A DNA stretch of 64,000 nt from an uncultured Piscirickettsiaceae bacterium. Lineage in GTDB: Bacteria; Pseudomonadota; Gammaproteobacteria; GCF-002020875. The DNA lies in contig CAYFMX010000001.1 of the NCBI GenBank assembly GCA_964344325.1, positions 202,233 through 266,232 on the forward strand. Direction: 5' to 3'. Position 1 is the stretch's first letter. Each line of letters starts with the position of its first letter. The position numbers and the translations under genes are program-made. Below the pieces are notes generated by a model, which was given only the letters and a program-made list of their open reading frames with translations, was not told the origin of the DNA and searched no databases. This document shows positions 19,537 through 53,829 of this stretch, in pieces.

Positions 19537-19548
19537 ACTCAAATCAAT

Positions 19549-21380: not shown

Positions 21381-22605
21381 GTTTTCTCGACATCATCGTT
21401 GCAATTGGAATCAATAAAAAAAGTAGAAAAACTCCCGGTGGCGATGAACGTGATAACCAATTTTGACTTAAACCAAATACTGCAAAAGAGACCAATGCCA
21501 TCATACCTATCATAATCCAAACATGATCTTGCTCTTCTGTATCCTGATTTATTTTTCTCCAAAGATAGAAAAAAGGAATTCCAAAAACACCTATCATGAT
21601 ACTTAGAAAACCTAATATGCCGGTTGTTGCTAAGAATTCTATGTATAAGTTATGCGCTTCTCCATAATTAGATATTTGTGCGTAACGTATATTATATTCT
21701 GCTAGTATTTTTTTATCTATATAATAGTCACCTAAGCCAGTACCAATCCACGGATTATCTTTCCAAATCTCAATTGCTGCTTCGGACATTAAAAGTCTTT
21801 GACCTACAGAACCTTCAATTTTTCCTTCCAGATAATTGGAAGATTCAACTTGTGCCTGATCCCAACGGTTTTTTACAGAATCCGGAAAAGCAAATATCAT
21901 TATTGTCAATGTTGTAAAAAATGTGAATAACAATATTATTGTATTTTTTCTCCACATTTTAAATTTCAATATACCCCAAATCATCAATAAAACTGCTGGG
22001 GGTAATGCAATCCATGCGCCACGCGTTCCTGAATAAAATGCCGCTGCAATTGCAAACAGTGAGGAAATTAAAGCCAATCCTCGGAACCAAAAAGTTTGTT
22101 GAGAAAAAAGAGCAACTGCTAGAGCCGAAAGCCCTATCACCATTGCGTAATCTCCATATAAAATAGAATTATACGATCCAACAGCAGTCTTTCCTGTACT
22201 CCATAAAAGATAAAATAAAATAGGCCCTGCTAGTAATATACCAATAGAAAAAAATCGACCTATTTGACCGCCAACTTTCCGTAGCATCAAATATGCTGGA
22301 ATCACAAACAAGAAACGCGCAACCCTTTCAAAACGTTTCATACTATTATGCATATCATCTACATTAATATAGCTGATGATTGATGCAATACATATCCCTA
22401 AAAAACCTAATAACAGCCATTTTTCCCATGAATCTAAATATTTCCATTCTGACCATGAAAAAAACAGGCCAAACAATGCAATTAATAAAACTGCTCCACT
22501 ACCTATACCTTTTACTATTGTCATCGCGACTGGAAAAATAACCACCAAACTAAACAGTATTATTTTTAAAAACTGCATACTATTTTTTTCGAACAGATAA
22601 TTCAC
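21361..22605 (-). CDS. O-antigen ligase family membrane protein (WaaL-like)
   Basis: 414 aa, about 10-12 TM helices, periplasmic loop with conserved Arg/His (GTRGAWIA...H), within the core-LPS cluster. Confidence 0.65.
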   Translation of the reverse strand: MNYLFEKNSMQFLKIILFSLVVIFPVAMTIVKGIGSGAVLLIALFGLFFSWSEWKYLDSWEKWLLLGFLGICIASIISYINVDDMHNSMKRFERVARFLFVIPAYLMLRKVGGQIGRFFSIGILLAGPILFYLLWSTGKTAVGSYNSILYGDYAMVIGLSALAVALFSQQTFWFRGLALISSLFAIAAAFYSGTRGAWIALPPAVLLMIWGILKFKMWRKNTIILLFTFFTTLTIMIFAFPDSVKNRWDQAQVESSNYLEGKIEGSVGQRLLMSEAAIEIWKDNPWIGTGLGDYYIDKKILAEYNIRYAQISNYGEAHNLYIEFLATTGILGFLSIMIGVFGIPFFYLWRKINQDTEEQDHVWIMIGMMALVSFAVFGLSQNWLSRSSPPGVFLLFLLIPIATMMSRKREIQSK

Positions 22606-23690
22606 TCTAAAATCTCTAAATACTCTTGAACTTCTCTTTCTTTCCTAAATAATTTTCTTGCTAGACCAATGTTTTCTATAGACTTTTCTTTTTCATACTT
22701 TATTTTAGAACAGACATCATAAAGAGTCTTATGTAACTCTATTTCATTTCTATTTTCCACAGCATGCCCATAAAAACCAAGGGAAAATATTTCTGGAATT
22801 GTAGTATTATCATAAGCAATGCAAACTAATCCACATCCTAATGATTCTGCTAAAACATTACCAAAGCCTTCACCGGAAGTTGGATATAAAAATACATCAT
22901 AATCTTGTAATTTACTAATAATATTCTCCACATGACCTAAAAATTTTATTCTATCTTTATAGTTAGTTAAAAGAGAAGTGTTTTTTAATTCTCGAAGATA
23001 TTCTTCTTCATCAAAATTTCCAATCAAATATAAATTGAATGGAATATTGTTTTCATAAAGTATCTGACATGCTTGAATAGCATCATCCTGTCCTTTACCT
23101 CTTGCAATTCTACCAACATGAACAACTTTAATTATCTTGTTAGTCTTTTCATGAGAAATTTCTGTTTTTTCTGAATATTGAAAAGAAGGATAAATTAATT
23201 TTATTTTCGAACTAGAGGAAATAGGAAATATATTGCGCACATTCCTTTTTAAATGATTGCTAATCACCACATGCCAATTAACACAGCTATACATCCATGT
23301 ATGAAACCAATCTTTCTTGCTATGCGACATAGTTGTGCCATGTCGAATGATGACATTCACACCTTTACCAATCAATCCAAAATAAATAGATTTTATTTCT
23401 GAAGTTCCAAAAAATATTATATTTTTTATATTTTCTGTAAAAACAAGGTCTCTTATAAAAAAAATCAATCTAAAACTAAAGTGTGACCGAAAATCACACG
23501 ACTTTACGCTAATTAAAGAAGAAATTTTTTTATCTTTTAGAATACGTTCTCTTATGTAGCTTTTATTTTTACATCCGACATATAACTTTCCGTATGGACT
23601 TAATTTTTCTGCCAAACGAACTGAATCAATCTCCATTCCTCCTTTTCCCATAGAAAAACAAAGGATTGCGGTATTGCCTATCTTATCCAT
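22602..23690 (-). CDS. GT4 family glycosyltransferase
   Basis: 362 aa, C-terminal EGFGNVLAESLGCGLVCIA motif of GT-B GT4 enzymes. Confidence 0.75.
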   Translation of the reverse strand: MDKIGNTAILCFSMGKGGMEIDSVRLAEKLSPYGKLYVGCKNKSYIRERILKDKKISSLISVKSCDFRSHFSFRLIFFIRDLVFTENIKNIIFFGTSEIKSIYFGLIGKGVNVIIRHGTTMSHSKKDWFHTWMYSCVNWHVVISNHLKRNVRNIFPISSSSKIKLIYPSFQYSEKTEISHEKTNKIIKVVHVGRIARGKGQDDAIQACQILYENNIPFNLYLIGNFDEEEYLRELKNTSLLTNYKDRIKFLGHVENIISKLQDYDVFLYPTSGEGFGNVLAESLGCGLVCIAYDNTTIPEIFSLGFYGHAVENRNEIELHKTLYDVCSKIKYEKEKSIENIGLARKLFRKEREVQEYLEILE

Positions 23691-23697
23691 TTTCTAT

Positions 23698-24720
23698 TCA
23701 TATAACATGAGAAGGAGAAATATTATTTAAACATTTCAAATGCTTAAAATAGCATTTTCGATCAAAACAAGGACTACATTCCAAACCCAAATAATATACC
23801 TTTTTTCTCCCCGTTAACGGCGGTGTATATTCTGGCGTAGAAGAACCATAAATCGCAATCACCTCCGTCCCCACTGCCGCTGCAACATGCATCAATCCGG
23901 AATCATTGGTAATCACTTTTTCGCACGCAGAAAGCAAATCAACCGCATCTTCAATGCGCGTCTTTCCACACAAATTAATCAGTGTTCGTTGTGAAATCTC
24001 AAAAATTTTTTCTCCAGCTTGGAAATCTTTTTTTGATCCTAAAATGATGACCTGATTCCCTTGATCAAACAATTTCTGACCCACTTCTGCAAAATACTCT
24101 AATGGCCACTGTTTTGCTGGACCATATTCTGCCCCCGGCAATAGTGCAATAATCTTCTTTTCTGAATAATCAAGATGATACTCTTTCTTTAAATTTTCTC
24201 TATTTTGCAAATCAATTTGTAGTTTTAGGAAAGGTACATTTACCTCTTTTTCAATTTCTTCTATGGTTTCTTTATCTGGAGCCAACGCCACATAGCGTTG
24301 CACGGTCTGTTTTAGACGGATTTTGTCCAATTCACGAATATCATTCAATAATCCATAACGCATTTCACCGCGATACCCCGTGCGTTGTGGAATCTTGGCA
24401 AAAAATGGAACCAATGCCGACTTCCAAGAACGCGGAATCACAATCGAACGATCATATTTTTCTGCACGTAATTTTTTTCCTAACTGCCGACACGCTTGTA
24501 ATCCTAATTTTCCATGTGGAACATCCAACGCAATCGCATTGGTCACTTCAGGCATCCGCTGAACAACGGGTAATGACCACGTCGGCGCAACGACATCAAT
24601 TTGCAGGTCTTCTAGAGTTCTATTTTTCTCTTTTTCTTGCTGTTGCAAAGTGATGCAGAGGCTTTGCATCATCACCATATCTCCAATCCAAGAAGGCCCA
24701 ACAATCAGGATTTTTTTCAT
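23698..24720 (-). CDS. waaF: ADP-heptose:LPS heptosyltransferase II WaaF
   Basis: 340 aa, long collinear similarity to E. coli RfaF (KILIVGPSWIGDMVM, GEMRYGLLND, LLPGAEYGPAK, VITNDSGLMHVAAA). Confidence 0.85.
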   Translation of the reverse strand: MKKILIVGPSWIGDMVMMQSLCITLQQQEKEKNRTLEDLQIDVVAPTWSLPVVQRMPEVTNAIALDVPHGKLGLQACRQLGKKLRAEKYDRSIVIPRSWKSALVPFFAKIPQRTGYRGEMRYGLLNDIRELDKIRLKQTVQRYVALAPDKETIEEIEKEVNVPFLKLQIDLQNRENLKKEYHLDYSEKKIIALLPGAEYGPAKQWPLEYFAEVGQKLFDQGNQVIILGSKKDFQAGEKIFEISQRTLINLCGKTRIEDAVDLLSACEKVITNDSGLMHVAAAVGTEVIAIYGSSTPEYTPPLTGRKKVYYLGLECSPCFDRKCYFKHLKCLNNISPSHVI

Positions 24721-25809: not shown

Positions 25810-28800
25810 TTACAACAGCACCTGCTCAATGCCGTCGTCTGCTTTGATTTTTTTCAGGAATTTCTGCTGCCACTTTTCACCATGCAGGCGACGCGCCAAC
25901 TCCACCACCACATAATCAACACCTAATCCGGTTGACTCTTCATAACGCATCAGCCCTTGCTGGCAAGAAGGGCAACTAGTAAGAATTTTCACCTTGTCGC
26001 GTAAACCAACTTGCTCTTTCCCAATCAATGATTGGATACCTGTCTTTAATTCACGTTCTTTGCGAAATTTCACCTGCGTTGCAATATCAGGGCGGCTGAC
26101 CGCAAATGTTCCTGATTCGCCGCAACAACGGTCTGACAGCAACACGTCCTGCCCCATCAACGTGGAAACGGTTCGGACTGCATTCGTCGCCTTCATTGGC
26201 GTATGGCACGGATCGTGATACAGGTAATTTCCTGCATTATTTTTCTTACCAGCATCATCAGTTTCGAGCGTAACACCCTTCGCACGCAAATATTCGTGAA
26301 TATCCATCAATTTGCAATCGGGGAAAATCTGCTGGAATTCGTATTGCATCAACTGATCCATACAAGTTCCGCAAGAGACCAGCACCGTGCGAATATCCAG
26401 ATAATTCAGCGTATTGGCAATTCGGTGAAACAGTACCCGGTTGCCCATCGAAATTTGATGGCCTTGTTTCTCCTGCCCGGCTGCGCGTTGCGGGTAACCA
26501 CAGCAGAGATAACCCGGCGGCAAAATCGTCTGCACATCCAGCGCATAGAGCATGTTCAAAACTGCCAGCTCGACTTGCCCAAACAAACGCTCCGCGCCAC
26601 AACCCGGGAAAAAGAAAACTGCTTCCGAATCATCGGTTGTCGTTTTTGGATTGCGCAAGATCGGCACATAGCGTGGATCTTCCAAGCCCAGAATCGCACG
26701 TGGCATTTTGCCGCCGATCTTCTCGCCCGGCATCGGATGGCGTAGAAAATGAACCAACTGTTCCTGCAATTTCGGTGGTTCAGTCGTCGCCGTCGGACGC
26801 GGACGGGCGCGAAATTTCAGCAACGAACGCGTCCATTGATGCGCCAACCGCTGCATCCGATAACTAAACTGCACCAACCCCATCCGCATCAGCCGGATTG
26901 ACCCCGGATTGGTCGCATTCAAAAACCGCATCGACATCCAGTGTGCCGGACTTGATTTGCGCTTACCAAGCTTCTTCAGTACGGTGCGCATCTGCATCGT
27001 CACCTTGCCGAAATCAATATTGACCGGACATTTCGCCTCGCATCGGTGGCAAATTGTGCAATGGTCAGCGATATTGTTCATCTCGGTAAAATGGCGGAAT
27101 GAAATCCCCCGGCGCGTTTGTTCTTCGTAGAGTACTGCTTCAATCATCAAACCGGTTGCCAAGATTTTGTTACGCGGTGAATAGAGCAGATTCGCCGCAG
27201 GGACATGTGTCGTACAGACCGGCTTACACTTGCCGCAACGCAGACAATCCTTGATCGACTGGTTCATGTTGCGGAGATCGTTCGCCTCCAGAATCAACGC
27301 CTCTTGCTGAACAAGCTGCAATGATGGCGTATAGGCATTTTCCAGACCGGAATCGCGCATCAATTTGCCGCGATTGAAGTGGCCTTTCGGATCAACCGCT
27401 TGTTTATACTGCGCAAACGCGTCAATTTCCGCATCATCCAGATAACCGATTTTGGTCAATCCGATCCCGTGCTCACCGGAAATGACCCCGCCGAGTGAAC
27501 AGGCCAACTCCATGATCCGGTCAACAACCCGCTCTGCCTCCTGCAACATTCCGTAATCATTGGAGTGCACCGGAATGTTGGTGTGGACGTTGCCATCCCC
27601 GGCGTGCATGTGCGTCGCGACAAACAACCGCCGCGCTTTGACACTGCTGTGAAATTCATTGATTTTATGGCGAATTTCTTCCAGATTTCGCCCGGAAAAG
27701 AGTTCGCGTAACGGTTTTTCAATCTCCTCTTTCCAGGAGACGCGCAACTCTCGTCGTTGCAAGATTTGAAACAGCGTATCTGCGCCCGGATCAAAATCAA
27801 GCAGATGCTGGTGACGTGAAGCAGGCTCGTCCATCTTCTCCAGAAAGAGTGACCAGCGCGTTTGCACCTGTTTGAGATGGTCGGCTGCAAGCTGTTCTTT
27901 ATCCACAACAATTTTGTGGTATTCCTCGCCCTCTTCCGCTTCCAGACGCTCGCTAATCTGGCGCAACTGTTTGGAGAGGAACCCCAGCAATTGATCAATC
28001 CCGTCCAGTTTGTTCTGGATCGATTGCTCAATGTTGATGCGCTCAATTCCTTCCGCGTAATCGGCCAGACGTTCCAGCGGAATCACCACATCTTCGTTGA
28101 TTTTGAACGCATTGGTGTGTGCAGCAATCGCTGCAGTACGTGCCCGCTCTGCCCAGAATTTGCGCCGTGATTCCGGACTTTCTGCAATAAACCCTTCGCC
28201 ATCCCGTGACTGCGCAATCGCGACAACCGCTTTTGCCGCTTCGGACACGTTCTCTTCGTTTTCGCCACCAATATCAGCCAACAATACCATCCGCGGCAAA
28301 GTTGGGCGTGCCGCTTTGGTGGTGTATTTGACTGCCTTGATATAGCGTTCGTCGAGATGCTCCAGACCGATCAACGCCACACCATCCGTCTGTTTCAGTA
28401 GGTCAATCGTCTCGACAATCGCTGGAACCGCATGATGCAAATCCGAGCCAAAAAACTCCAGACAAACCGTCTGCAACACGCTGGATTGGCGATGCAGCAT
28501 AAAACGTGCAGAAGTGATTAAGCCATCACAACCCTCTTTTTGCGCTCCGGGTAATCCTTCCAGAAATTTTCGGGTCACATCCTTACCAAGACCGGGACGG
28601 CGCATTTTCTCGGTTGGGATTTTCAGGACATTGGGTTTGCCCTTGAACTGTTTTCCATCTCGCTCCAATGGCTGGACGCGAAATTCTGCATAGGGCGCAT
28701 CATGGAGTTTGCCGCGATTGTGGTTGAGCCGTTCAATCAGAATCCACTCTGCATCCGGCGTCACCATCTTCCAAGAAATCAGGTTATCAAGCGCCGTTCC

Positions 28801-29670
28801 CCAGCGCACCGCCTTTTTCCCGCCGGCATTCATCGCGATATTGCCGCCGATGGTCGAGGCGTTTTGCGAGGTAGGATCAACCGCAAAAGCCAACCCAGAT
28901 GACTCTGCTACATCGGTCACACGCTGGGTAACGACACCGGCTTCCGCACGAATACTCGCTACCCCACCGCCGCCACCGGGCAGATTGATACGCTCAATCT
29001 CGCTAATTTTTTCCAACCGTTCCAGATTGATGACAGCGGTATCCGCTTCCAGCGGCACTGCACTACCGGTATAACCCGTGCCGCCACCACGCGGGATCAT
29101 CGTCAAACCTAGCTCAATGCAAGCCTCGACAATGCCGCGTACTTCCTGTTCTGTATCGGGCGTAATGACGATAAATGGAAACTCGACGCGCCAATCCGAT
29201 GCATCCGTTGCATGAGAGACGCGTGCCAATCCATCAAAATGAATATTGTCTTTCGCAGTGACACGCGCCAGTTTGCGGAAGGTACGCTGGCGAAGTGGGG
29301 CTTGGCGGTTCAACCACTGTTCAAATTGGTCGACTGCATTTTCTGCGCTCTCCACTAATGCAAGTGTAAGCTGGTTGTTGTTGGCACGTTCCAGCACTTG
29401 CTGTAACCGAAAACGCAATGCATGAACCAACGACTGGCGGCGTTTCGCATTACCGATCAGATCATCCTGAATATAGGGGTTGCGGCGAATAACCCACATA
29501 TCGCCCAACGCTTCAAACATCATCCGCGCAGAACGCCCAGTTTTCCGCTGTCCGCGCAGTTGACTCAGAATCTCCCATGCCTCCTCACCCAGAAAACGGA
29601 TGACGATTTCACGGTCAGAAAACGAGGTGTAGTTATAGGGGATTTCGCGGATTCGGGGTGAAGATGACAT
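25810..29670 (-). CDS. DUF3683-FAD-binding oxidase fused to Fe-S (ferredoxin / CCG) oxidoreductase, YdiJ/GlcD-GlcF-like
   Basis: 1286 aa; FAD PCMH-type region, two CxxCxxCxxxCP 4Fe-4S motifs ([23 protein letters not shown]), C-terminal cysteine-rich CCG domains. Confidence 0.7.
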
Positions 29671-43061: not shown

Positions 43062-44420
43062 ATGGCAGAAAGCGGCGGACAGGAGAAAAAAACCCAGTGG
43101 CTGACCACGGTCGTCAGTGCGCTGGAAAATGATGATCCGCATGCTGTCCAGCCATTGGTGGAGAATCTCCACTGCTCCGATTCCGCCCATCTGGTCGAAT
43201 CACTGCCGCCCAAAGAGCGACAGGCATTCTGGGAGACACTAACCCCCGAACAACGCGCAGAAATCCTCCCGTGCCTGCACGATGAAGTCCGCGCCGGGTT
43301 GCTGGAGGCGATGGAGACGGAAGAGCTAACCGCCGTCGCCCACCAGATTGAAACGGATGACATGGCCGACCTGTTGCAGGACATGTCGTTCCAGCAGACG
43401 CAGGATGTGCTTCGTTCACTGGACGAGCAAAACCGCGAGCGTTTGGAGGAAGTGCTCTCCTACCCGGAAGATACGGCAGGCGGCTTGATGAATACCGACT
43501 GTATTCGTATCCGCCCCGATATTTCGATTGATGTGGTACTGCGTTACTTGCGGATGCGCGGCGAATTGCCGGAGATGACCAACAAACTGATGGTGGTTGA
43601 TCGGCACAATACCTTCCTTGGCGAACTACCTATCTCCATCATATTGACCACACCGCCGGAAGTAGAAGTTGGCGAAGTGATGCTCAAGGAGTGCGAATTC
43701 ATCCCGGCGATGACCTCAGATCATGAAGTTGCTGACTTGTTTGAAGATCACAATCTTGTCTCTGCGCCGGTGTTGGATGAACGTGGACGATTATTAGGGC
43801 GTATCACAATCGATGATGCGGTGGAGATTATTCGCGAAGAGGCGGAACGCACTCTCTTGAGTCGCGCCGGCATGAAGGAAGAGGAAGACACCTTCGCGCC
43901 GATCCGTACGAGCATGAAACGCCGCACCGTCTGGTTGGCGATCAACCTCGCAACGGCGTTTTTGGCAGCATGGGTGATCGGCCTGTTTGAACACACCTTG
44001 CAGCAAGTCATTGCGCTAGCCGTGCTGATGCCGATTGTTGCCAGCATGGGCGGCATCGCTGGCGGACAAACACTGACACTAGTGATCCGCGGCATGGCGA
44101 TGGATCAGATCAACGAAGCTAATACACGTTGGCTGATCCTGAAAGAACTAGCAGTCGGCGTGATGAATGGCGGGTTCTGGGCTGTGATTGTCGCAGCTAT
44201 TGCGGCACTTTGGTTCGGCGATCTAATGCTTGGTTTGGTAATTGCAGCAGCGATGCTGCTCAATTTGTCGATTGCCGCGCTGTCGGGCGTGGTAATCCCG
44301 ATGGTGCAGAAAAAAATGGGGATTGATCCAGCATTAGCGGGGTATGTAGTGTTGACGACCGTAACCGATGTGGTCGGTTTCTTTTCGTTTTTGGGGTTGG
44401 CAACGTTGATTTTATTGTAA
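43062..44420 (+). CDS. mgtE: magnesium transporter MgtE
   Basis: 452 aa, N-domain, tandem CBS, C-terminal 5-TM MgtE channel domain. Confidence 0.85.
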   Translation: MAESGGQEKKTQWLTTVVSALENDDPHAVQPLVENLHCSDSAHLVESLPPKERQAFWETLTPEQRAEILPCLHDEVRAGLLEAMETEELTAVAHQIETDDMADLLQDMSFQQTQDVLRSLDEQNRERLEEVLSYPEDTAGGLMNTDCIRIRPDISIDVVLRYLRMRGELPEMTNKLMVVDRHNTFLGELPISIILTTPPEVEVGEVMLKECEFIPAMTSDHEVADLFEDHNLVSAPVLDERGRLLGRITIDDAVEIIREEAERTLLSRAGMKEEEDTFAPIRTSMKRRTVWLAINLATAFLAAWVIGLFEHTLQQVIALAVLMPIVASMGGIAGGQTLTLVIRGMAMDQINEANTRWLILKELAVGVMNGGFWAVIVAAIAALWFGDLMLGLVIAAAMLLNLSIAALSGVVIPMVQKKMGIDPALAGYVVLTTVTDVVGFFSFLGLATLILL

Positions 44421-44454
44421 ATAGTGCTTGCGCGATATTCTATCTGTAGCCTTC

Positions 44455-44550
44455 CTATTTTTTATTCGCGTGCCTTACTGATTCCCAAACTACAATTCCC
44501 ATACCAATCAGAAAAATTGCCGTGATTAAAACAACCATCAAAAACTTCAT
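44455..44550 (-). CDS. 31-aa single-TM peptide (translationally coupled to the upstream ORF)
   Basis: Manual translation MKFLMVVLITAIFLIGMGIVVWESVRHANKK; its ATG overlaps the TAA of the 85-aa ORF (TAATG). Confidence 0.35.
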   Translation of the reverse strand: MKFLMVVLITAIFLIGMGIVVWESVRHANKK

Positions 44551-44807
44551 TACAACTCCTCCAATTGATCAATTTTCTTGTAAGCAAAATGGTTGATTCC
44601 TACGATGGACAACGTCACCAAAAAAGAAATACCGCCAATCAGAAACAGAAGCTTCCATGTAATTTGCTCCCAATTTTGAAACAACCAACCAATCAACGAC
44701 ACATCTATCGCAACCAGCAAGATATATGTCGCTTTCAACCAGCCAATCTCCTCTTTGATTTTCTCTGATCTCGACACGCTTTTCTCCATAAACTTCAAAA
44801 TCAGCAT
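44550..44807 (-). CDS. 85-aa two-TM small membrane protein
   Basis: ORF with two hydrophobic helices and a charged N-terminus; AT-rich accessory context. Confidence 0.4.
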   Translation of the reverse strand: MLILKFMEKSVSRSEKIKEEIGWLKATYILLVAIDVSLIGWLFQNWEQITWKLLFLIGGISFLVTLSIVGINHFAYKKIDQLEEL

Positions 44808-44881
44808 TGTACCTCAAACGTAAAAGAGCAAGCCCGCAGACCTGCCCTTCAATGGTAAATTTCGCAATCAATCACCAAATA

Positions 44882-45472
44882 TCAGAGCACTACAATCACC
44901 TGATTGCTCGGCAATGAACTGCCCACACTATTTTGCGCCACAACCTGATAGGCGACCTCTTCCCGTACTGGCTGATCCTGCAAGATGATTTCGCGGTCAA
45001 TCGCAACCTCTTCCGATCTCCCATCACGCACAATTCGGTAGTGAACCACTTTTCCACCATCGTTTGGCTCTTTCCAGCGCAGTGCAACCACGCCGGATAA
45101 AATCCGCTCTGCGGTCAATGTTCTGGGCTGTCCGGGAACCTTCGGCGCAGCACGCAAGTTGCGTCCGCCCCAACCGATCAAATTCAACTTAATATCATCA
45201 TTGCCGACCGTATTTTCTGCATAATTGATCGCGCTTCGCGCCATTGCTGCCAACTGCTCCAGATCGCCATTCTTTTTGGCAACCATCGCCTTTGCCAAGG
45301 CCTGCTGTGCAATCGTAGTCTCACGGGATGCATCAAATTCTGCAATGAGATCTTCAATTTCTTCCGGCGTGTTGGGCGGGGAAGGATACAAATCCACATT
45401 GTTCCGCAGCCCTTCTGCAAGGGAAGCAGCCAGTGCCCGTATTTCCAGCTCTTTTTTCGGGAAAACCGCCAT
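44882..45472 (-). CDS. hypothetical protein with C-terminal fibronectin type III-like domain
   Basis: 196 aa; helical N-half, C-terminal beta-rich FN3-like segment (PGQPRTLTAERILSGVVALRWKEP...). Confidence 0.45.
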   Translation of the reverse strand: MAVFPKKELEIRALAASLAEGLRNNVDLYPSPPNTPEEIEDLIAEFDASRETTIAQQALAKAMVAKKNGDLEQLAAMARSAINYAENTVGNDDIKLNLIGWGGRNLRAAPKVPGQPRTLTAERILSGVVALRWKEPNDGGKVVHYRIVRDGRSEEVAIDREIILQDQPVREEVAYQVVAQNSVGSSLPSNQVIVVL

Positions 45473-45693
45473 AATGACCTCCTAGTGACTCATCTATCTG
45501 ATACGCAGATCGTATTGGATAGAGATCATAAAGAGACGGAAAACCTTTTTAAAACAGAATGTTTTTATGGACGGAGAATATTTTCTTGTTGGTGGATGAA
45601 GTTGCAAAACAGTAGAATTCCCAGCTTTTTTAAGAAACAAACTCCTGCCAATAAACAAACGAAATTCTCTTGAAATTAAAGGGTATTGAACGA

Positions 45694-46773
45694 CTAAGGT
45701 ACTGCATTATGGCTGCATGGACGACATCGAGGACCTAACTCAACTCCCTGATATTTATATACTATCTCTTTTGCTTTAGTAACAACATCTCTCAACATTC
45801 CTTCATCGGGCGGACATCGACTACGAAGAGGAGTTGCTGGATCAGGACGAAATGGACTAAGAACTGGATCACAACCCCTTTCAGCCAAAGCTCTAATACC
45901 TTCCAGAGTCGATTCAATGCTTTCTAGTCCGACAAGTAGAGATGAACGAACACGCCCTACACCAAAAACTTCCACTGCCTGCTCAATAAATTCAAGATAG
46001 CACTCCCTAGATAATCCATACTTACGAGGAGTTATCTTTCTGGCTATTTGCTCATCAAAAACTTCAATATTTATTGATAAACCATAAATTCCTATGCGTT
46101 TAAGAAAATTTAAGTCAAGTAAGTCAGGATAAGGAACCATCATCACATCAATTTCAAGGTCAGGATAATAATTGCAGGTTGTCTCATAAACTTGTTGTAG
46201 ATACGAATAGTCTTCAACTTTAGGTGTTCCACCTGAGATCAACACATGACGTGGTGACAATTGTGGATCTTCTATCGCGACTCGGAGCGCATCCATCATT
46301 CGATCAATTGGATTTAGACGATATTTAGATGTGTAAGGTAAATCACAAAACGTACAGGTAATTGCGCATCCGTCCACCGGAGAGATACGCGCCCTATCTG
46401 CGTGTGTGTTTACATACTGAGTAAATGGCTCGCCCCATTGATTCAGTTTCCCATGATACGCAGGAACAGGAATTGGTGAAGCCATAATATTAGTATTAGG
46501 CCCAACCACGAAAAAACTACCACTGTTTGTCACAAGTTGATAAATTGGTTTTGTAACAAAGTTGTAATTATAATCGATGAAAGGTGTATTGACCCACACT
46601 TCTTGATTACGCATTGGATCAAATAGCTTTAGTGTAATTCCGTTTGTAGTAGCATAGTCTCCAGTAGTTAATTGATCAGTTCCCCAAATTTTGAAAAGCT
46701 CTGTGCGTGCATCTTGAGTAATCTCAATCCCTTTCGAATACAACGATAGTTTTAGAAATTCAATATTATTCAT
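45694..46773 (-). CDS. radical SAM enzyme
   Basis: 359 aa, CxxxCxxC cluster (CAITCTFC) after an N-terminal domain of about 130 aa, glycine-rich SAM-binding segment (ISGGTP); start overlaps the stop of the upstream NTPase gene. Confidence 0.75.
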   Translation of the reverse strand: MNNIEFLKLSLYSKGIEITQDARTELFKIWGTDQLTTGDYATTNGITLKLFDPMRNQEVWVNTPFIDYNYNFVTKPIYQLVTNSGSFFVVGPNTNIMASPIPVPAYHGKLNQWGEPFTQYVNTHADRARISPVDGCAITCTFCDLPYTSKYRLNPIDRMMDALRVAIEDPQLSPRHVLISGGTPKVEDYSYLQQVYETTCNYYPDLEIDVMMVPYPDLLDLNFLKRIGIYGLSINIEVFDEQIARKITPRKYGLSRECYLEFIEQAVEVFGVGRVRSSLLVGLESIESTLEGIRALAERGCDPVLSPFRPDPATPLRSRCPPDEGMLRDVVTKAKEIVYKYQGVELGPRCRPCSHNAVP

Positions 46774-48917
46774 TATTGTTCAGATTTAGTTTGCGAACCA
46801 CACGATATAATTTGATGCGCACTTGCATTAAGTAGTTTGGCACTACTTTGATCCCACATGCAATATTCAAACTTCGTTTCTTTGTTTGCAGAAATCACGC
46901 AACCATCAATGCTAACCAGTTGCTCCAAGCGAGCAAGCTGCACAGTAATATTATTAGACTTACCAAATGCAATAGCTGCTTTATCACTCTTATCGTGCTT
47001 CTGCTTAACCAACTCAGTAGGTCGTCCAACTTCTGAATCATAGTAAAAACTAACCTGGCATAATGTGGTTTCACCATCAAATGTTACATTTTCAAATCGA
47101 CAGCCCCTGAAATCAACTTGAGACTTTTCTTTAGCAATATCTATAAAGTCTGAGTCTTTGAATACACAGCACCAAAAAAGAACCCCTTGAAGATCGACAT
47201 TTCTAAATGTGCAATTGTCAAAGCTGATCCCTTTAAATATTGTTCCTTTGAAAGTCCATCCTGAAAAATCTATACCTGAAAACTCTGATAAATTCTGAAG
47301 TGATTTGAGATCTACATTTCCAATATCCGTAATGAAGGAACAACCCTGATAGAATTTAGCAGGTTGGAAATATGAGCTACTTAAATCTACTGACCCGCTC
47401 TGAAGCATAACATCTACTCCTACATTTTCTACAGGAGATGAGATACTATCTTCGAGCGTACCAAATATCTTTGACGCCCAATTACTTAATGCTGAACCTA
47501 AAAGATCATGAACTAGTTCAACACGCTTTCCTAAGCTATCTTCGCTATTATCATTATATGTCTTAAGAATATTCGCATTCTTAAGCACAGAAATGGTGTC
47601 ATTAAAATAAGATTCGATAGCCGATTGAGCATCTTCGTATATACCATATTTATTCATTAACTTCCGAGTATTGATCTCTTCATTTTCTATTAGCTTGTCG
47701 AGTAACTCCTTAGTGCGTATGGAAATCTTATAGTCACCAGCTGAAAGAAACGACGATATGCGTGCTGCTATCCAGCGAATATAGCCAACTCTACAAGACA
47801 TTTCAGTGTGATCACTATCACTGTTAAAGTCATTCAGCGACATTGTGATCCAACGTTCAAGTGCTTCAGAATAGACGAAAAGATAATCCTCTTCTTCCTG
47901 AGAATCTATGATGACTGATTGTTCATACCCCAATAGGTCTTCAATTAATACTCTTTTTTTCCCCTGTTTTTTAAGATACGAGAAAAACTCATAAGAAACA
48001 ACTTGTAAGGTGAGTAAGTTATTACTTCTGAAATCTAGTTTTTCTTCTATTCCTTTTTTCACCATAGAACAGTTCAGAATCAAACGATCTCTTGTATCTC
48101 TATCTAAGAATATATCTTCGCTCTCAAATGATTTTTCAATAATTAAGCCAACCTGCTTTGTGACACCATTCTGATCCGTAGAAGGTATAGCCTTGAGGAA
48201 ATATGCTCTGCGCATGATACTTCCTACCTCATGATCAAGGAAACGAAGTGCATGTAAATACTCTTCACGCAGAGAGATAAGAATACGAACTTGTTTGTTT
48301 AAATAATATAAATCCTTGATTAATTCTATTATTTCATTGCTTTCTTGCAACCTAGACCTAAATAGCTCCTCTAATTGGTCAAAAATTAATATTACTCCAC
48401 CATATTGCCTAACCAGTGACATAACGCTGGCGACAAACAGTTCGTTCTGGGCTCTGCTCCTAGCTTCATCTATCAATTGAGCTTTCTCCAGTATTCCACT
48501 TGCGATTTGGTAATCATTATGGTTCTTGAAGTCGGCTTCTTCCGGTGTTTTTTCAGGGTTAAGTCGTTCTATTGCTTCTGCCAAACTCATCCAGAGGTAT
48601 GTACGTAAATCAGCACTATTTGCGACTCCACCCCAGTCTCGAAATACAAGCACAGGGAAGGGATAGATAATTTTTTCAGAAGAATTTTCCAGAGATGCAT
48701 TTCGACGTTTTCCGAGTTCAGGTATTAAGCCAGCTCTCAGAAGCGATGTTTTACCAGCAGCACTTTCACCTGCTAAAACGTTAAGCTGCCAAAGCACCAT
48801 ATTCTGTATAAGTTCACCAATTTCTTTCTCACGGCCAAAAAAACGGGAATGGTGTCTCTCCTCATATGGAGTAGCACCCACAAATGGATTTGTACTTAGA
48901 TCGTTAATTGTATTCAT
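46773..48917 (-). CDS. STAND-type NTPase with C-terminal pentapeptide repeats
   Basis: 714 aa; FFGREKE-x-Walker A (GESAAGKTSLLRAGL), Walker B ILIFDQLEELF, large helical middle region, C-terminal pentapeptide-repeat beta-helix (DFSGWTFKGTIFKGISFDNCTFRNVDLQGVLF...). Confidence 0.7.
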   Translation of the reverse strand: MNTINDLSTNPFVGATPYEERHHSRFFGREKEIGELIQNMVLWQLNVLAGESAAGKTSLLRAGLIPELGKRRNASLENSSEKIIYPFPVLVFRDWGGVANSADLRTYLWMSLAEAIERLNPEKTPEEADFKNHNDYQIASGILEKAQLIDEARSRAQNELFVASVMSLVRQYGGVILIFDQLEELFRSRLQESNEIIELIKDLYYLNKQVRILISLREEYLHALRFLDHEVGSIMRRAYFLKAIPSTDQNGVTKQVGLIIEKSFESEDIFLDRDTRDRLILNCSMVKKGIEEKLDFRSNNLLTLQVVSYEFFSYLKKQGKKRVLIEDLLGYEQSVIIDSQEEEDYLFVYSEALERWITMSLNDFNSDSDHTEMSCRVGYIRWIAARISSFLSAGDYKISIRTKELLDKLIENEEINTRKLMNKYGIYEDAQSAIESYFNDTISVLKNANILKTYNDNSEDSLGKRVELVHDLLGSALSNWASKIFGTLEDSISSPVENVGVDVMLQSGSVDLSSSYFQPAKFYQGCSFITDIGNVDLKSLQNLSEFSGIDFSGWTFKGTIFKGISFDNCTFRNVDLQGVLFWCCVFKDSDFIDIAKEKSQVDFRGCRFENVTFDGETTLCQVSFYYDSEVGRPTELVKQKHDKSDKAAIAFGKSNNITVQLARLEQLVSIDGCVISANKETKFEYCMWDQSSAKLLNASAHQIISCGSQTKSEQ

Positions 48918-48962
48918 TTTATTAAAACCTGTGCAAACTAGAACAGTACTATATACACGATG

Positions 48963-50897
48963 TTAACGGCGTGTGAGATAAGATAGCGATCTGAAAAACA
49001 TATATAAATCGTCAGTTAGTGCAGGTTTAATATTGAGATTCTCACAATAAGCATGCTTTACCTCATCTTTAGACTGCATCACAGCGTATCGATGCCCATT
49101 TCTTTTATCATTCTGGCCTAGTGAAGGAGTCTCATTCTTACCTGTAGCCACTTGAAAATACAATTGTGAGCGTATATTCCAATCAGAAAGAGAATAGCCT
49201 AAAAACCAAAGACCGAATCTAGATCGTACAGTTTGTAGTGCAGCAAGAGGCATTTCGCGGCTAGTAGCTTCTGAAAGAACTTGGACATACCCACTTTCAG
49301 TGATGAGTGTCATATGGTTCCACCTAACTGAAGAAAATGGGCTCTGCTGCGGAATCTGTTCAGAAATGGAAGCAATATCAACGCTCGGTGCACCGTGTAA
49401 TTTCAATATAATTGGTCCTGGAATAGATTTATCATTGAGAATATTTTTTAAGCAATGACTCTGTGATTGTCCGCCTGACTGTGTATCACTATTTTCCGAC
49501 CGATCTTTACATATAATACTTGGTTCTAAACGGTGCACGCTATTTATTATAGTCTGTCGTACCCACGCAGTTTCTATCCCAGATGCACTATCTTGACTAC
49601 TATATTGACTAGAAGTGGAAATTTTTCCATCTAAATCTTGTGCCTTAGAAGAACTATCACCATCAAAGTGTATTTCCCGGTAAACTGGAAATAAAATATG
49701 AATAGCCCCCCATGGGGGATTTTCTACATTCATAAGAGCTATCTCAAGTGACTCATCATAGTTTGTTGTAAATAATAATGGAGGAATTTTTGGCTCGCAT
49801 GGATTATCCTTAATGCGTCGCTCGTTAGCTTGATACATCGCTTTTGTAACAGAAGCCAACGATTTATAGCCTGAACTTACAGGGAACAAATCTTTGGTTA
49901 TCCGGTGACAGTATGATATCCAGTTATCTATAACTTCAGAAACATGCTGTGGAAACATCTCTTGTTCACCATCCACGACAGCTAATGCCTCGGCAACCTG
50001 AGATAGTTCACCAACCACTCTGATTGGCTTTCCAGTTTTACGAAGAGTAAGTCGTAATGTTAATTCACGAGACGATGGTAGCAATGGATCGTCGAATCTG
50101 AACAAATGCCACAGAAAAGAAAATAACCATTGAATTTCATCGCCGAGAAAACTTAATTGCGAATCAGAGTATGCTCGCTTATTAACCGAATCAAATATTT
50201 CGACATGCTCGGGCGAAAAAAGATCAATCTCACCTCTTACTATTTTTGAAGCAAGATCTCTTAAAGCAGTTTCTATGCTTTCTGGGCACAATAAGAAGCA
50301 AATTTCGACATTTGTATCTTTTAAGAACTTCCTTATCTTAGTTGCATTCGATAGGCAATCATTTAATATCGAAACAGCTTCTCCTATACTTCGTTCGGGA
50401 ATAAGCAGTCTTGTATTAGGAAGCCAAGCAGTTAACGTGTTGCTATTTCTCGTTTGATCAGCAGCAACAGTATCTAAATAAACTAAGAATTTAAGAATAT
50501 TTTTTTGTAGTTGTATTAGTAACACTTCAAGTGGGCTTTCATCGAAAGCAATAGCCTCTGAACTATTAGCCCAGTTAGTATAAATCCCACACCAAGATAC
50601 CGTTTCTCTTCTTGCTTCAGAAAGGTAATTGATATCGGCAATGATATCGAGCAAGTGCTTTTCACTATCAGATGCAGAATATGATTTCAATCTGCCAAAT
50701 CGATATGCGCTAAGAGCTCCAGGTGCAGCCCGTAACATTTCGAAATCTTTATTATCAGATGATAATAGATTACTTATTACTTCAGGATCACGAAATGCTG
50801 AAACACCCGCACCTATGAAAGGAACAAAGCGCCCTGCTTCAACATCACGTCCTAAAAAACTGATCCATTCCTCCGTTTGCACTTTTGACACTCCCAT
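48963..50897 (-). CDS. SIR2-family (DHS-like NAD-binding) protein with large inserted middle region
   Basis: 644 aa; N-terminal FVPFIGAGVS (GAGxS) and C-terminal LWFLGYSLSDWNIR (GYSxxD) are the two hallmark motifs of the SIR2_2 family. Confidence 0.55.
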   Translation of the reverse strand: MGVSKVQTEEWISFLGRDVEAGRFVPFIGAGVSAFRDPEVISNLLSSDNKDFEMLRAAPGALSAYRFGRLKSYSASDSEKHLLDIIADINYLSEARRETVSWCGIYTNWANSSEAIAFDESPLEVLLIQLQKNILKFLVYLDTVAADQTRNSNTLTAWLPNTRLLIPERSIGEAVSILNDCLSNATKIRKFLKDTNVEICFLLCPESIETALRDLASKIVRGEIDLFSPEHVEIFDSVNKRAYSDSQLSFLGDEIQWLFSFLWHLFRFDDPLLPSSRELTLRLTLRKTGKPIRVVGELSQVAEALAVVDGEQEMFPQHVSEVIDNWISYCHRITKDLFPVSSGYKSLASVTKAMYQANERRIKDNPCEPKIPPLLFTTNYDESLEIALMNVENPPWGAIHILFPVYREIHFDGDSSSKAQDLDGKISTSSQYSSQDSASGIETAWVRQTIINSVHRLEPSIICKDRSENSDTQSGGQSQSHCLKNILNDKSIPGPIILKLHGAPSVDIASISEQIPQQSPFSSVRWNHMTLITESGYVQVLSEATSREMPLAALQTVRSRFGLWFLGYSLSDWNIRSQLYFQVATGKNETPSLGQNDKRNGHRYAVMQSKDEVKHAYCENLNIKPALTDDLYMFFRSLSYLTRR

Positions 50898-50913
50898 TGA
50901 ATTGGTATTTTAT

Positions 50914-52290
50914 TTAGAAAATAGATTTTATTTTTTGTATTTTATCTTGATATTCAAGAGTCAATTTACCATCAAGCTTGCTGACACTTTCATTCGTTTG
51001 AAAACGACATATTATTGCATTTGGATCCACTTTAATTCCAGATGGAGGTAGTACAGACAAAATACCATTAAATTCTCGTCCAACCTCTAGATTAATCTTT
51101 GGCTCAACCGGATTTTTCTCAAGATTACGAATCACTACATGACTCATCTCAGGCTGTTCTTCAACTAATTGACAAACATGCCTATCAGGAGGTGGACATA
51201 ACCCTAGATAAGCAGAAATATGTTCAATATACAAATCAGGCTGCCCGATTTGTTGATCAAGCAATGCTGCGACTGATGAAGAACCTTGAAAACGTGGATT
51301 AACCTCAACTAAATAGAGCTTATTTTCATAGATTAATGCATCAATACCGAATGCGCCTATATACCTTTCCTTATATAACCAATTGCCTACAAATCGCCCG
51401 AGTAAATCCAGTTCTCCTAAAAGTTCTGGCTCAATTCTTTTTATCAATCCAAAATCATTGCCACAATAGGAAAACGGATTTCTCGTAAGTGCAGGATCAC
51501 CTACAATTTGTATCGAAGGCCCATGGAGACGTACTTCCGATGTATTTGATGACTGCCCAGAAAATACACACCCATTTATACTTATAGGTATACTATCATG
51601 AATATATGGAGCAACCGAGCAGTATCCATCTCTATTATTTTCCAGTTTATCCCATATTTTATTTAAGCCATTTTCATTTTCTACTAGAAAAAGACCATTA
51701 CCACCGGTAGATCTATTTAACCTAACTACTAAAGAACCATTATTCAGCATCTCTTCAAGCATAGGTCTCGAAGAATCTGTTATTAGAAAATATTTCCAAT
51801 CAATAAAATTGATAGGAACTTGAATCTTATCTCGTTCTTTTTTTAACTCCGTCTCAACCCAAACTTTATGCTCAAATGCATTCTGACGTTCTTGAAAAAG
51901 ACCGGCGAATTGCGCATGATTTTCTCTTGGAAAAATTACTGAAGTTAAAACATTATATGGTCGATACGGAACAAGCACACAGCGTTGATCGACAGCTTTC
52001 GAAAGTAACTGCCATAATTCACAAACAGCTTTTTTTTCTACACTGTTAGAAGGCTTATCATCGACAGAATATGCATCAAGGTCAACTCTCCGCCCTGTTA
52101 ATGTCTCTAAGCATTGTCCTCCGATTCCAGGCCAATCATTAAGAGGCGAAATAATCGAAAACACATCTCCGAATTGCGGCAATTCCATCAGAGGCTTAGC
52201 ATCGCAACCTCGGGTGCCAAACCAAATGATCCGTTGCCCTTCAAGGGCAGACGAAAGAGTTTGGAGATAGTTGTGCCTAACATGCTCCAC
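50914..52290 (-). CDS. ATP-grasp family ligase
   Basis: 458 aa; glycine-rich loop GGNGLFLV, C-terminal LYLVEVNPRFQGSS (ATP-grasp E-x-N-x-R Mg-binding motif). Confidence 0.6.
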   Translation of the reverse strand: MEHVRHNYLQTLSSALEGQRIIWFGTRGCDAKPLMELPQFGDVFSIISPLNDWPGIGGQCLETLTGRRVDLDAYSVDDKPSNSVEKKAVCELWQLLSKAVDQRCVLVPYRPYNVLTSVIFPRENHAQFAGLFQERQNAFEHKVWVETELKKERDKIQVPINFIDWKYFLITDSSRPMLEEMLNNGSLVVRLNRSTGGNGLFLVENENGLNKIWDKLENNRDGYCSVAPYIHDSIPISINGCVFSGQSSNTSEVRLHGPSIQIVGDPALTRNPFSYCGNDFGLIKRIEPELLGELDLLGRFVGNWLYKERYIGAFGIDALIYENKLYLVEVNPRFQGSSSVAALLDQQIGQPDLYIEHISAYLGLCPPPDRHVCQLVEEQPEMSHVVIRNLEKNPVEPKINLEVGREFNGILSVLPPSGIKVDPNAIICRFQTNESVSKLDGKLTLEYQDKIQKIKSIF

Positions 52291-52385
52291 AGTAGTATTT
52301 ACCCCTTTAATATCTAAAATCTGTTAGTCTTTGATAAAGCTATTTCACGCACGATTCTTAAAAAAACCCAAGGAATCTAATGTAA

Positions 52386-53615
52386 ATGAACAACCCCAAA
52401 CAACTAGGCCCACATCCCACGGGGGGATGGATTTCAGAAGATGAAGCACTTATTTTTGAATTCCATAAAAAATTACCTGAATGGCTACTAGATATAACAC
52501 CACCTTGCTTTATTTATGACCTCGAAAAATTTCGAGAAGAAATCAAAACCATATTAGATACATTCCCACAGTACCGTTACCCATTGAAGTGTAATCCTCA
52601 TCCATCATTACTCGCTACTGTGTTGTCATTAGGTGCAGGGGTAGATGTTTGTTCTGTTGGAGAATTAGAAAAAGCCTTGATGGAAGATGCACCCGGTCAC
52701 TTAATTAATTACTGTAGCGTTTCTTATACTACTGCGCTCATCGACCATTTAGTGAGTATAGAAGCAACTGTCACACTAAACAACCTTGATGATCTACAAT
52801 TGATGTTAGCACGCCATCCTGCTCAGACACCAAGTTTACGTATAGAAGCAATTGATCCAAATACTCCTTATGGCGACAAATTCGGTTTTTCGATGAACCA
52901 ATGGAGCCATGTTGAGAAAATTTTGAATCAATATCAGACTTACTTGAGTGGTTTGCATATTCACACTTCTCATTCTCCTGATATAAACCAACTTACTCAA
53001 CGTTTATCCCCATTACTAGTAGCATTAGAAAGGTTAAAAGATTGGGTTCCAAAAATGCATTTTCTCAATCTAGGTGGAGGATGGCCTATGCTTTATGGTG
53101 CCCAGTTTCATTCTGTAACTGCGAAAGATTTTGAAAAAATTTTAGAAAAAGACTTCCTACCGAAAGCCAAGAAACTCGGCTTTAAGGGCGAAGTGTTAGT
53201 TGAACCTGGGGAATATGTAACTTCATCTATGGGATACTGGGTGGCTGAAGTCACTGGGGTTAAAAAAAACGAAATAAATTTACCAATAGTCTTCGCAAAT
53301 ACTCCAGGAGTAGTTCCATCAGCAGAGATTGCATATCCAACAGCATTATTTCGAAAATGCAAAGCTGGCTGGGAAAGAGTCCAAAATGAATTAGTCACTG
53401 TCAAAATTGTTGCAGCAACAAATTCCCCATTCGATACGATTCGCCCTACAGTAATGCTACCAATGCCTCAAGCTGGTGATCGGCTGGTATTTGGACAAAC
53501 TGGAGCATATCTACCTTGTTTGATGGGAACCTTTAATAGTATTCCGGCTCCCCACACATACATTGTCCACAAAAATACCTCTTCTCCTATTTCCCACCCC
53601 CGATCCTACACTTGA
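52386..53615 (+). CDS. fold-type III PLP-dependent decarboxylase (Orn/DAP/Arg decarboxylase family)
   Basis: 409 aa; YPLKCNPHP (PLP-lysine K-C-N motif), GAGVDVCSVGELE, C-terminal beta-sandwich with the GAY motif; divergent from the ATP-grasp gene. Confidence 0.7.
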   Translation: MNNPKQLGPHPTGGWISEDEALIFEFHKKLPEWLLDITPPCFIYDLEKFREEIKTILDTFPQYRYPLKCNPHPSLLATVLSLGAGVDVCSVGELEKALMEDAPGHLINYCSVSYTTALIDHLVSIEATVTLNNLDDLQLMLARHPAQTPSLRIEAIDPNTPYGDKFGFSMNQWSHVEKILNQYQTYLSGLHIHTSHSPDINQLTQRLSPLLVALERLKDWVPKMHFLNLGGGWPMLYGAQFHSVTAKDFEKILEKDFLPKAKKLGFKGEVLVEPGEYVTSSMGYWVAEVTGVKKNEINLPIVFANTPGVVPSAEIAYPTALFRKCKAGWERVQNELVTVKIVAATNSPFDTIRPTVMLPMPQAGDRLVFGQTGAYLPCLMGTFNSIPAPHTYIVHKNTSSPISHPRSYT

Positions 53616-53829
53616 AAAAATACATCATTTCATACTTGCCCCACATCACATTAAATCCGACATACTTCATCCCATACTTCCATCAACCTAAAACACTCCT
53701 CCCCCAAACCATCCCCTCCCTCACATTACCCAATTCCCCCTTCACCCTTCCCTTTTGAAGTATCACCGATAGAATGTCCGCCTTCACAAGCCGTTGCGCG
53801 GCTCTCCCTTTTCAGGAACCAAATCCCAC

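Follow-up and report, generated by a model that had tools for sequence, protein, structure and literature searches.

In the butirosin pathway, an ATP-grasp enzyme loads glutamate onto the acyl carrier protein (ACP) BtrI, and BtrK then decarboxylates the tethered residue (PMC11350588). A different use of metabolic-type enzymes is known from Kongming, where a SIR2 NADase is activated by a small molecule that enzymes produce (PMC13454610; bioRxiv 10.1101/2024.12.20.629578), a precedent for the reading developed here. We analyzed a 64,000-nucleotide stretch of DNA (hereafter the window) from an uncultured Piscirickettsiaceae bacterium (GenBank assembly GCA_964344325.1, contig CAYFMX010000001.1, positions 202,233–266,232), which encodes a divergently transcribed ATP-grasp enzyme and a pyridoxal phosphate (PLP)-dependent decarboxylase-like enzyme. 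An original prediction, made from these letters alone, had read the two as a BtrJ/BtrK-like pair. We found that the pair belongs to a five-gene, horizontally acquired cassette (45694–53615). Judged from its sequence, there is in our view about an even chance that this cassette is a conflict or anti-phage-type system, in which the enzyme trio would make or modify a small amine metabolite.

The cassette consists of a minus-strand operon, in the order ATP-grasp, SIR2-like, nSTAND1-pentapeptide, and radical SAM, and of the decarboxylase-like gene transcribed divergently from it (Table 1). The SIR2-like gene begins 16 nt past the ATP-grasp stop, 45 nt separate the SIR2-like and STAND genes, and the STAND stop and the radical SAM start share 1 nt. 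All five proteins retain intact catalytic motifs. Both open reading frames (ORFs) of the pair lie exactly where the original prediction had placed them, and gene calls of identical length exist in public assemblies (P0001 for the ATP-grasp, P0121 for the PLP enzyme). The genes and their linkage are thus real; however, the two genes as first described make up only about one-quarter of a larger unit, and their butirosin reading is unsupported. The island that carries the cassette lies between mgtE and rsfS-rlmH-rng, with no flanking direct or inverted repeats around it and no tRNA at it. Within the island, an ORF between the radical SAM gene and mgtE probably falls outside the cassette, with no counterpart in related loci.

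Table 1 Positions of the cassette genes and of other features of the window
Feature	Position	Strand	Description
ATP-grasp enzyme, first gene of the minus-strand operon	50914-52290	-	458 aa, GTG start; three-domain, apparently of small-molecule ligase/carboxylase type
SIR2-like protein	48963-50897	-	644 aa; Pfam SIR2_2 45.8 bits, family alignment
STAND NTPase, nSTAND1 clade	46773-48917	-	714 aa; Pfam nSTAND1 82 bits and pentapeptide families
Radical SAM enzyme	45694-46773	-	359 aa; NCBIfam variant_rSAM 126.9 bits (cutoff 125)
Diverged fold-type III (Orn/DAP/Arg) protein of the PLP decarboxylase family	52386-53615	+	409 aa, ATG start; Pfam 81 bits, residue mapping, clade alignments
Spacer between the divergent starts	52291-52385		95 bp, ~70% A+T; presumed location of both promoters
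Low-GC insertion (island)	44421-53793		36-40% G+C versus ~45-55% in the flanks
mgtE	43062-44420	+	Island flank
rsfS-rlmH-rng	53794 onward	+	Island flank
ORF in the island	44882-45472	-	196 aa; sub-threshold fibronectin type III match, 19 bits (cutoff 25)
Second low-GC block	18024-24720		32-39% G+C; lipopolysaccharide core/O-antigen cluster
GT9 heptosyltransferases (three)	18024-19082, 19549-20592, 23698-24720		Lipopolysaccharide cluster
GT2	20589-21380		Lipopolysaccharide cluster
Wzy_C/O-antigen ligase	21361-22605		Lipopolysaccharide cluster
GT4	22602-23690		Lipopolysaccharide cluster
DUF3683/FAD-oxidase/CCG/4Fe-4S fusion protein	25810-29670	-	1286 aa
SPOR-domain protein	12068-13426	-	Lies in a strongly strand-asymmetric stretch (AT skew -0.34)

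Next, we evaluated gene linkage across related loci. The ATP-grasp alignment was used to scan one genome per GTDB species, which yielded 78 loci and, once ORFs had been called and clustered, 62 non-redundant ones. Partners were counted within 9 kb of the ATP-grasp gene, for all 62 loci and for the 34 whose flanks reach ≥6 kb in both directions. Overall, a radical SAM gene was the most frequent partner (50 of 62 loci, and 32 of the 34 with full flanks), followed by STAND (40 and 29), SIR2-like (38 and 27), Asp/Orn carbamoyltransferase-like (29 and 25), and nitroreductase genes (23 and 19), with CHAT proteases (9 and 7) and the decarboxylase (7 and 1) being the rarest. Decarboxylase and carbamoyltransferase never occurred together in the 62 loci, and the carbamoyltransferase-like enzyme was at times fused to the ATP-grasp. 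These loci are distributed across Pseudomonadota, Acidobacteriota, Actinomycetota, Chloroflexota, Desulfobacterota, and other taxa.

The ATP-grasp and decarboxylase families adjoin in 7 non-redundant loci and in three arrangements, in which the two genes diverge, sit at the two ends of a single operon, or overlap by 4–25 nt; since the pairing recurs in this manner, it is more than chance. The decarboxylase-linked ATP-grasps fall in three lineages of a rough neighbor-joining tree, so that the two enzymes co-occur in three lineages as well as three arrangements, which bears out their initial description as a functional pair. The complete five-gene set recurs in metagenomic contigs at 35–60% protein identity. 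In the search for more decarboxylase-containing cassettes, a JGI metagenome scan returned no close relatives. In the metagenome-assembled genome of an uncultured Rhodospirillales bacterium (locus L007), all five genes are found with the decarboxylase divergent as in the window, and a 5.2-kb contig ending inside the SIR2-like gene (L001) likewise has the decarboxylase divergent from ATP-grasp and SIR2-like genes. In L002–L006, including the five-gene loci L002/L003, the decarboxylase is relocated behind the radical SAM gene, at the far (3′) end of the operon. That the decarboxylase is rearranged yet retained provides strong evidence that the five genes work together. The decarboxylase gene of the closest related cassette (L007, 3–1057, minus strand) is split into two ORF fragments, which reflect a pseudogene that has undergone a frameshift or else misassembly of a contig with 2.6× coverage.

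Two further contexts come from decarboxylase-clade members that only the exhaustive HMMER search described below retrieved. L093 and L094 encode, in this order, a pentapeptide/ATPase protein, an AAA plus calcineurin-like phosphoesterase, radical SAM, ATP-grasp, and decarboxylase, with overlapping ATP-grasp and decarboxylase ORFs and with ATP-grasp and radical SAM proteins 33% and 42% identical to those of the window, respectively. L095 has an ATP-grasp orthologue (36% identity) whose ORF shares 4 nt with that of the decarboxylase. Such overlaps in L093–L095 would predict that the two proteins form a complex. The nSTAND1-plus-pentapeptide architecture of the partner NTPase is kept in distant loci (L012, L037), the SIR2-like protein of 5 loci bears an N-terminal TIR domain (TIR_2) that matches Thoeris ThsB at 6.7e-12, and CHAT proteases are found upstream in Actinomycetota loci. 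Taken together, a conserved enzyme arm, i.e., radical SAM and ATP-grasp with either the PLP enzyme or the carbamoyltransferase and with or without the nitroreductase, is joined to a variable NTPase/effector arm, i.e., nSTAND1-pentapeptide and SIR2 with or without TIR, CHAT, or an AAA-phosphoesterase.

The two arms also differ in how fast they change. Across the 32 loci having all four core proteins, median pairwise identity was 0.46 for the radical SAM enzyme and 0.37 for the ATP-grasp, compared to 0.25 for the STAND protein and 0.20 for the SIR2-like protein. Pairwise identity matrices were nevertheless strongly correlated (ATP-grasp/STAND r = 0.93, ATP-grasp/SIR2-like r = 0.91, SIR2-like/STAND r = 0.98; Mantel p = 0.001), and correlations of the ATP-grasp with STAND and with SIR2-like proteins were still r = 0.81–0.84 when near-identical pairs were excluded. 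These correlated matrices indicate that the cassette is inherited as a unit. Its slowly evolving enzymes combined with fast-evolving partner proteins match the pattern of immune sensors and effectors.

The divergent enzyme of the cassette can be compared to ornithine decarboxylase (ODC), lysine/ornithine decarboxylase, and diaminopimelate (DAP) decarboxylase LysA, with which it shares the fold. Its N-terminal domain passes the family cutoff (Pfam Orn_Arg_deC_N, 81.3 bits vs. a cutoff of 23.4), whereas the C-terminal Orn_DAP_Arg_deC match stays under its cutoff (17 vs. 23 bits). The PLP-binding lysine is K68 (codon 52587–52589), and the cofactor set is intact by reference to Trypanosoma brucei ODC: K68 corresponds to K69, D87 to D88, E93 to E94, R152 to R154, H193 to H197, G230–232 (loop GGGWP) to G235–237, E273 to E274, and Y375 to Y389, with K68, H193, G230–G232, and E273 invariant over the clade alignment. 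In this fold type, the lysine forms the Schiff base, the glycine-rich loop holds the phosphate, the histidine stacks on the ring, and the glutamate contacts the pyridine nitrogen. Other positions differ. N346-S347 (53421–53426) replaces Cys360-Asp361 of the T. brucei enzyme, a catalytic Cys with an adjacent acidic specificity residue that comes from the second subunit and reads C-E in DAP decarboxylase, P307 replaces Asp332, and E276 replaces Arg277, residues which we take to be the proton donor (Cys360), the distal-amine ligand (Asp332), and the phosphate ligand (Arg277). These substitutions are not private to the window: the position of the catalytic cysteine is Asn in at least 90% of the clade, and Asn346 and Glu276 are nearly invariant.

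A word-indexed protein search retrieved just 3 relatives of this enzyme, and the wider clade came from an exhaustive HMMER search, in which 17 representatives with E < 1e-30 were found among 1.84 billion proteins. Members are 28–46% identical to one another and at most 26% identical to LysA-like proteins. Based on these alignments, the enzyme represents a small separate clade, altered in its active site and kept under purifying selection, rather than a decayed LysA. Both proteins of the pair do come from large housekeeping superfamilies, and one could thus picture a LysA- or SpeC-type decarboxylase that happens to lie next to an unrelated ATP-grasp. However, the lysA equivalog model scores 111.7 bits, well under its cutoff of 297.9 (NCBIfam), other residues stand in for the catalytic Cys-Asp and the specificity Asp, the clade is small, the genes lie in a low-GC island, and the linkage recurs in 7 loci and three arrangements. 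The clustering with LysA or SpeC against which the original prediction had been staked is therefore absent, and ordinary housekeeping neighbors are hardly credible as an explanation; a housekeeping LysA/SpeC identity is effectively refuted by the lysA score, the residue mapping, and the HMMER clade.

The nearest outgroup of the decarboxylase clade (P0134, 35% identity; L090, 9433–13112, also L091 and L092) stands alone without ATP-grasp or radical SAM genes. Its gene directly follows an 8xMP octameric membrane protein gene, in defense-island-like surroundings with BrnT/BrnA and HepT toxin-antitoxin genes and an AAA_15 and DUF4276 pair.

The ATP-grasp enzyme has only a marginal Pfam match (24.7 bits vs. 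a cutoff of 23.2), but its identity is settled by other evidence. It belongs to a family of >300 homologues with 33–50% identity, in which the Mg/ATP motif E329-V-N331-P-R333 (~51292–51306) is invariant and accompanied by several family-specific motifs. A confident AlphaFold2 model built with 30 homologues (pLDDT 92.4, pTM 0.92) displays the three-domain ATP-grasp fold with its E-x-N motif. Foldseek places biotin carboxylase and PurK nearest to this model, with PylC also near, and protein-modifying or ribosomally made, post-translationally modified peptide (RiPP) ATP-grasps clearly more distant (RimK/LysX score 16–17, MdnC/PsnB 12–13). Since the family motif, the model, and the fold neighbors all point in this direction, the enzyme looks like a small-molecule carboxylate-amine ligase or carboxylase. 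Its resemblance to PylC is at the level of fold class only, as PurK scores equally well, and the cassette otherwise departs from the pyrrolysine PylB/PylC/PylD set: the radical SAM enzyme is not PylB-like (variant_rSAM, MSMEG_0568; MqnE, ThiH), and there is no PylD-like gene.

Fusions provide a further view of this enzyme. Protein P0099 joins an ATP-grasp to an Asp/Orn carbamoyltransferase (Pfam domains), and oversized ATP-grasp ORFs in L022 (768 aa) and L049 (945 aa) have the appearance of further fusions. The fusion argues that the two enzymes act consecutively, and a carboxy- or carbamoyl-phosphate-type intermediate between them is conceivable.

How well does the butirosin logic fit such a pair? 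The model holds that the ATP-grasp loads an acidic amino acid via its side chain onto a carrier and that the PLP enzyme decarboxylates the tethered residue, following the established BtrJ/BtrI/BtrK logic (PMC11350588). The cassette resembles that pathway in that an ATP-grasp is genetically and tightly coupled to a fold-type III PLP decarboxylase-family enzyme, i.e., the same two superfamilies, and the lack of Orn/Lys distal-amine-binding residues in the clade would be compatible with a bulky tethered substrate. Ligation followed by alpha-decarboxylation is accordingly plausible and a reasonable chemical logic for the pair. The specific analogy fares less well. Among the PDB hits, 46 of which are group-IV decarboxylase sequences, BtrK (7ru7, 2j66) ranks last of that group at 14.6 and 14.4 bits (E 0.11–0.12), behind the Lys/Orn decarboxylase 2plj (54.5 bits), T. 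brucei ODC (53 bits), and DAP decarboxylase (49 bits), and on this ranking we rejected a specific relationship of the decarboxylase to BtrK. No btr-type or aminoglycoside genes are present: the neighbors are SIR2_2, nSTAND1-pentapeptide, radical SAM, MgtE, RsfS, and RlmH, and the conserved partners are radical SAM, SIR2-like, and STAND proteins. The catalytic Cys-Asp is moreover replaced by Asn-Ser, and the ATP-grasp family partners the carbamoyltransferase (29 loci) more often than the decarboxylase (7).

The carrier itself is also missing, in line with the remark in the original prediction that no carrier-protein gene lies nearby. A Pfam scan of the small ORFs of 44.4–54.7 kb gave no PP-binding match, hence no ACP-like ORF in the island, and no conserved small ORF emerged when 30–110-aa ORFs were clustered across ~60 related loci, although very short or hypervariable peptides could escape this approach. 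The clustering returned only antisense shadow ORFs of conserved genes, and neither a carrier protein nor a RiPP precursor. Overall, we consider a BtrJ/BtrK-like carrier-based pathway highly improbable.

The AT-rich spacer between the two starts was correctly described: it spans 95 bp with 28 G+C by count (~70.5% A+T). Purine-rich ribosome-binding motifs, AGGGG and AAGGA, lie 11–16 nt 5′ of the two starts. A sigma-70 consensus scan returned no site within the spacer, and the three divergent spacers of the window, L001, and L007 showed no conservation and no common motif. A shared divergent promoter in this spacer is plausible.

Three further proteins complete the cassette. In the SIR2-like protein, the SIR2 domain is split by a large insert, with intact motifs GAGxS (residues 29–33), TTNYD (N379, codon 49761–49763), and KLHG (H501, codon 49395–49397). 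A word-indexed search gave only 2 homologues of this protein, and a family alignment was assembled from the loci instead; the best PDB matches of the resulting profile are defense NADases, i.e., Kongming KomC (E 4e-9), then SIR2-HerA and DSR2. In an Actinomycetota clade (L029, L032, L035, L037, L044, L049, and others), TSFD and RLSGSP replace TTNYD and KLHGS, and a CHAT protease is added upstream; NAD cleavage by the SIR2-like protein cannot be what this variant puts out.

The STAND protein has an intact Walker A (GESAAGKT, residues 50–57, 48747–48770) and Walker B (ILIFDQLEE), and a C-terminal pentapeptide-repeat beta-helix at ~residues 540–630; no helix-turn-helix (HTH) output domain was detected with Pfam. 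Its residues 542–666 weakly match the Hailong effector HalA model (27 bits vs. a cutoff of 250) along with Qnr and MfpA models, all of which probably reflect repeat-level similarity only. Finally, the radical SAM enzyme carries the canonical C136-x3-C140-x2-C143 (46345–46368), a conserved ~125-aa N-terminal domain, and a C-terminal GPRCxPCxHN motif. It also matches NCBIfam MSMEG_0568, and its profile is weakly closest in the PDB to MqnE and ThiH.

Compared to Kongming (KomABC) and Thoeris, the cassette shares a SIR2 profile closest to KomC, a TIR in related loci that matches ThsB, and the presence of metabolic-type enzymes in the same operon. Its enzymes are radical SAM, ATP-grasp, and PLP decarboxylase or carbamoyltransferase, however, as opposed to deaminase, ITPase, and TIR cyclase, and it includes a STAND NTPase. 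Compared to Avs/AVAST-type STAND systems, the cassette has a STAND protein with intact Walker motifs and C-terminal repeats, an adjacent SIR2 (or TIR, CHAT, or phosphoesterase), and fast-evolving partners, but its sensor is a constant pentapeptide-repeat beta-helix rather than a variable TPR-like domain, its effector is a separate gene, and an obligatory three-enzyme arm is attached. No PADLOC model of either kind of system matched. If the cassette is a conflict system, we would rate it as one of STAND/SIR2 type with an unprecedented obligatory enzyme arm.

Under this conflict-system reading, we infer the chemistry, the information flow between the two arms, with the metabolite as signal, co-substrate, or toxin, and the defense phenotype. 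The first arm (radical SAM, ATP-grasp, and PLP enzyme) would build or modify a small amine-bearing metabolite: the ATP-grasp would take a small-molecule substrate and catalyze amide formation or amine carboxylation on it, a free alpha-amino-acid head group would be the target of the PLP enzyme, and a C-H or C-C transformation would fall to the radical SAM enzyme. Both alternative third enzymes, decarboxylase and carbamoyltransferase, would target the free head group or a side-chain amine of Orn/Lys/Asp-type amino acids. The second arm (nSTAND1 ATPase and SIR2-like protein) would sense an invader and execute an NAD+-directed response. Pentapeptide beta-helices are known DNA mimics in Qnr and MfpA, and because of this mimicry the helix of the STAND protein could serve as bait for phage DNA-binding proteins.

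This reading is favored by the TIR-SIR2 fusions, the CHAT proteases, the PDB matches to defense NADases, the fast-evolving partners, and the low-GC insertion between housekeeping genes. Several observations weigh on the other side. PADLOC-DB v2.0.0 gives no match for any protein of the window, related loci show domain-level PADLOC matches only (the ThsB TIR and a weak SAVED_CHAT), no other defense genes flank the cassette within the window, and PLSDB plasmids and IMG/VR viral contigs yielded no copies of the ATP-grasp family. The Actinomycetota clade has lost the catalytic Asn and His of SIR2, indicating that NAD cleavage cannot be a universal output, and shared host phylogeny could partly contribute to the co-diversification of the core proteins. 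Lastly, two genomic contexts would fit ordinary secondary metabolism. In Mycobacterium szulgai (L030, 8250–19619) and M. angelicum (L041), ATP-grasp, radical SAM, nitroreductase, and carbamoyltransferase genes occur without SIR2 or STAND and directly upstream of an amidase and a 2230-aa nonribosomal peptide synthetase (NRPS; A-T-C-A-T-reductase), a context which suggests that the enzyme-arm product can be an NRPS building block. Similarly, a Liv-type amino-acid ABC importer adjoins several Acidobacteriota loci.

These same contexts support a biosynthetic gene cluster that stands alone and makes a natural product or antimetabolite from an amino acid, which we regard as a serious, albeit unlikely, alternative. 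Here, the radical SAM enzyme, ATP-grasp, and decarboxylase (or carbamoyltransferase and nitroreductase) would make an unusual amino acid or amine, and the STAND-pentapeptide and SIR2-like proteins would provide regulation and/or self-resistance, by analogy with the gyrase-shielding McbG, AlbG, and Qnr. The constant pentapeptide domain of the partner NTPase and the loss of SIR2 catalytic residues in Actinomycetota would be compatible with such a role, as would the proximity of the ATP-grasp fold to small-molecule ligases (PylC, L-amino-acid ligases, BesA, and PGM1) and the weak affinity of the radical SAM profile to small-molecule enzymes. However, TIR-SIR2 fusions, CHAT proteases, and AAA-Metallophos proteins are atypical as regulators or resistance genes of biosynthetic clusters, and the partner proteins show the rapid divergence of immune sensors and effectors. 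The window cassette also has no exporter, tailoring, or scaffold genes, and no HTH output domain was detected in the STAND protein.

If the cassette is instead considered as an immune system, it may represent a new class of pathway, in which a radical SAM/ATP-grasp/PLP (or carbamoyltransferase-nitroreductase) enzyme set turns an amino acid into a non-nucleotide small molecule, gated by the STAND protein and with the pentapeptide helix as bait. We advance this possibility tentatively and consider it rather doubtful. Within it, the product could be a second messenger, a co-substrate (e.g., for an amino-acid-ADP-ribose-type conjugate with SIR2/TIR), or an antiviral antimetabolite. The PLP enzyme, for its part, might catalyze something other than simple decarboxylation without its proton-donor Cys, e.g., a decarboxylation-dependent transamination to an aldehyde.

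Elsewhere, the window contains a second low-GC block, the lipopolysaccharide core/O-antigen cluster, along with the DUF3683-containing fusion protein and the SPOR-domain protein (Table 1), the latter two being unrelated to the cassette.

The gene combination is undescribed in the full-text literature searched, which included a modularity-network preprint of 2025 and the Aravind-lab papers in which nSTAND1 and conflict systems akin to it were defined, with subscription-only papers outside this scope. Three families were likewise not found described: the Orn/DAP-fold PLP clade with its altered active site, the ATP-grasp family of >300 members, and the conserved radical SAM partner. The surroundings of the pair are more interesting than the pair itself. 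To our knowledge, signals derived from nucleotides, together with NAD cleavage, have so far dominated bacterial immune chemistry. If it has a defense function, the cassette would extend this repertoire to amino-acid-type enzymology (radical SAM, ATP-grasp, and PLP or carbamoyl transfer), and would offer a tractable five-gene model, with clear targets for point mutation, of the communication between a metabolite-making arm and a STAND/SIR2 arm. As the enzyme arm feeds an NRPS in mycobacteria, its product may also be a natural-product building block.

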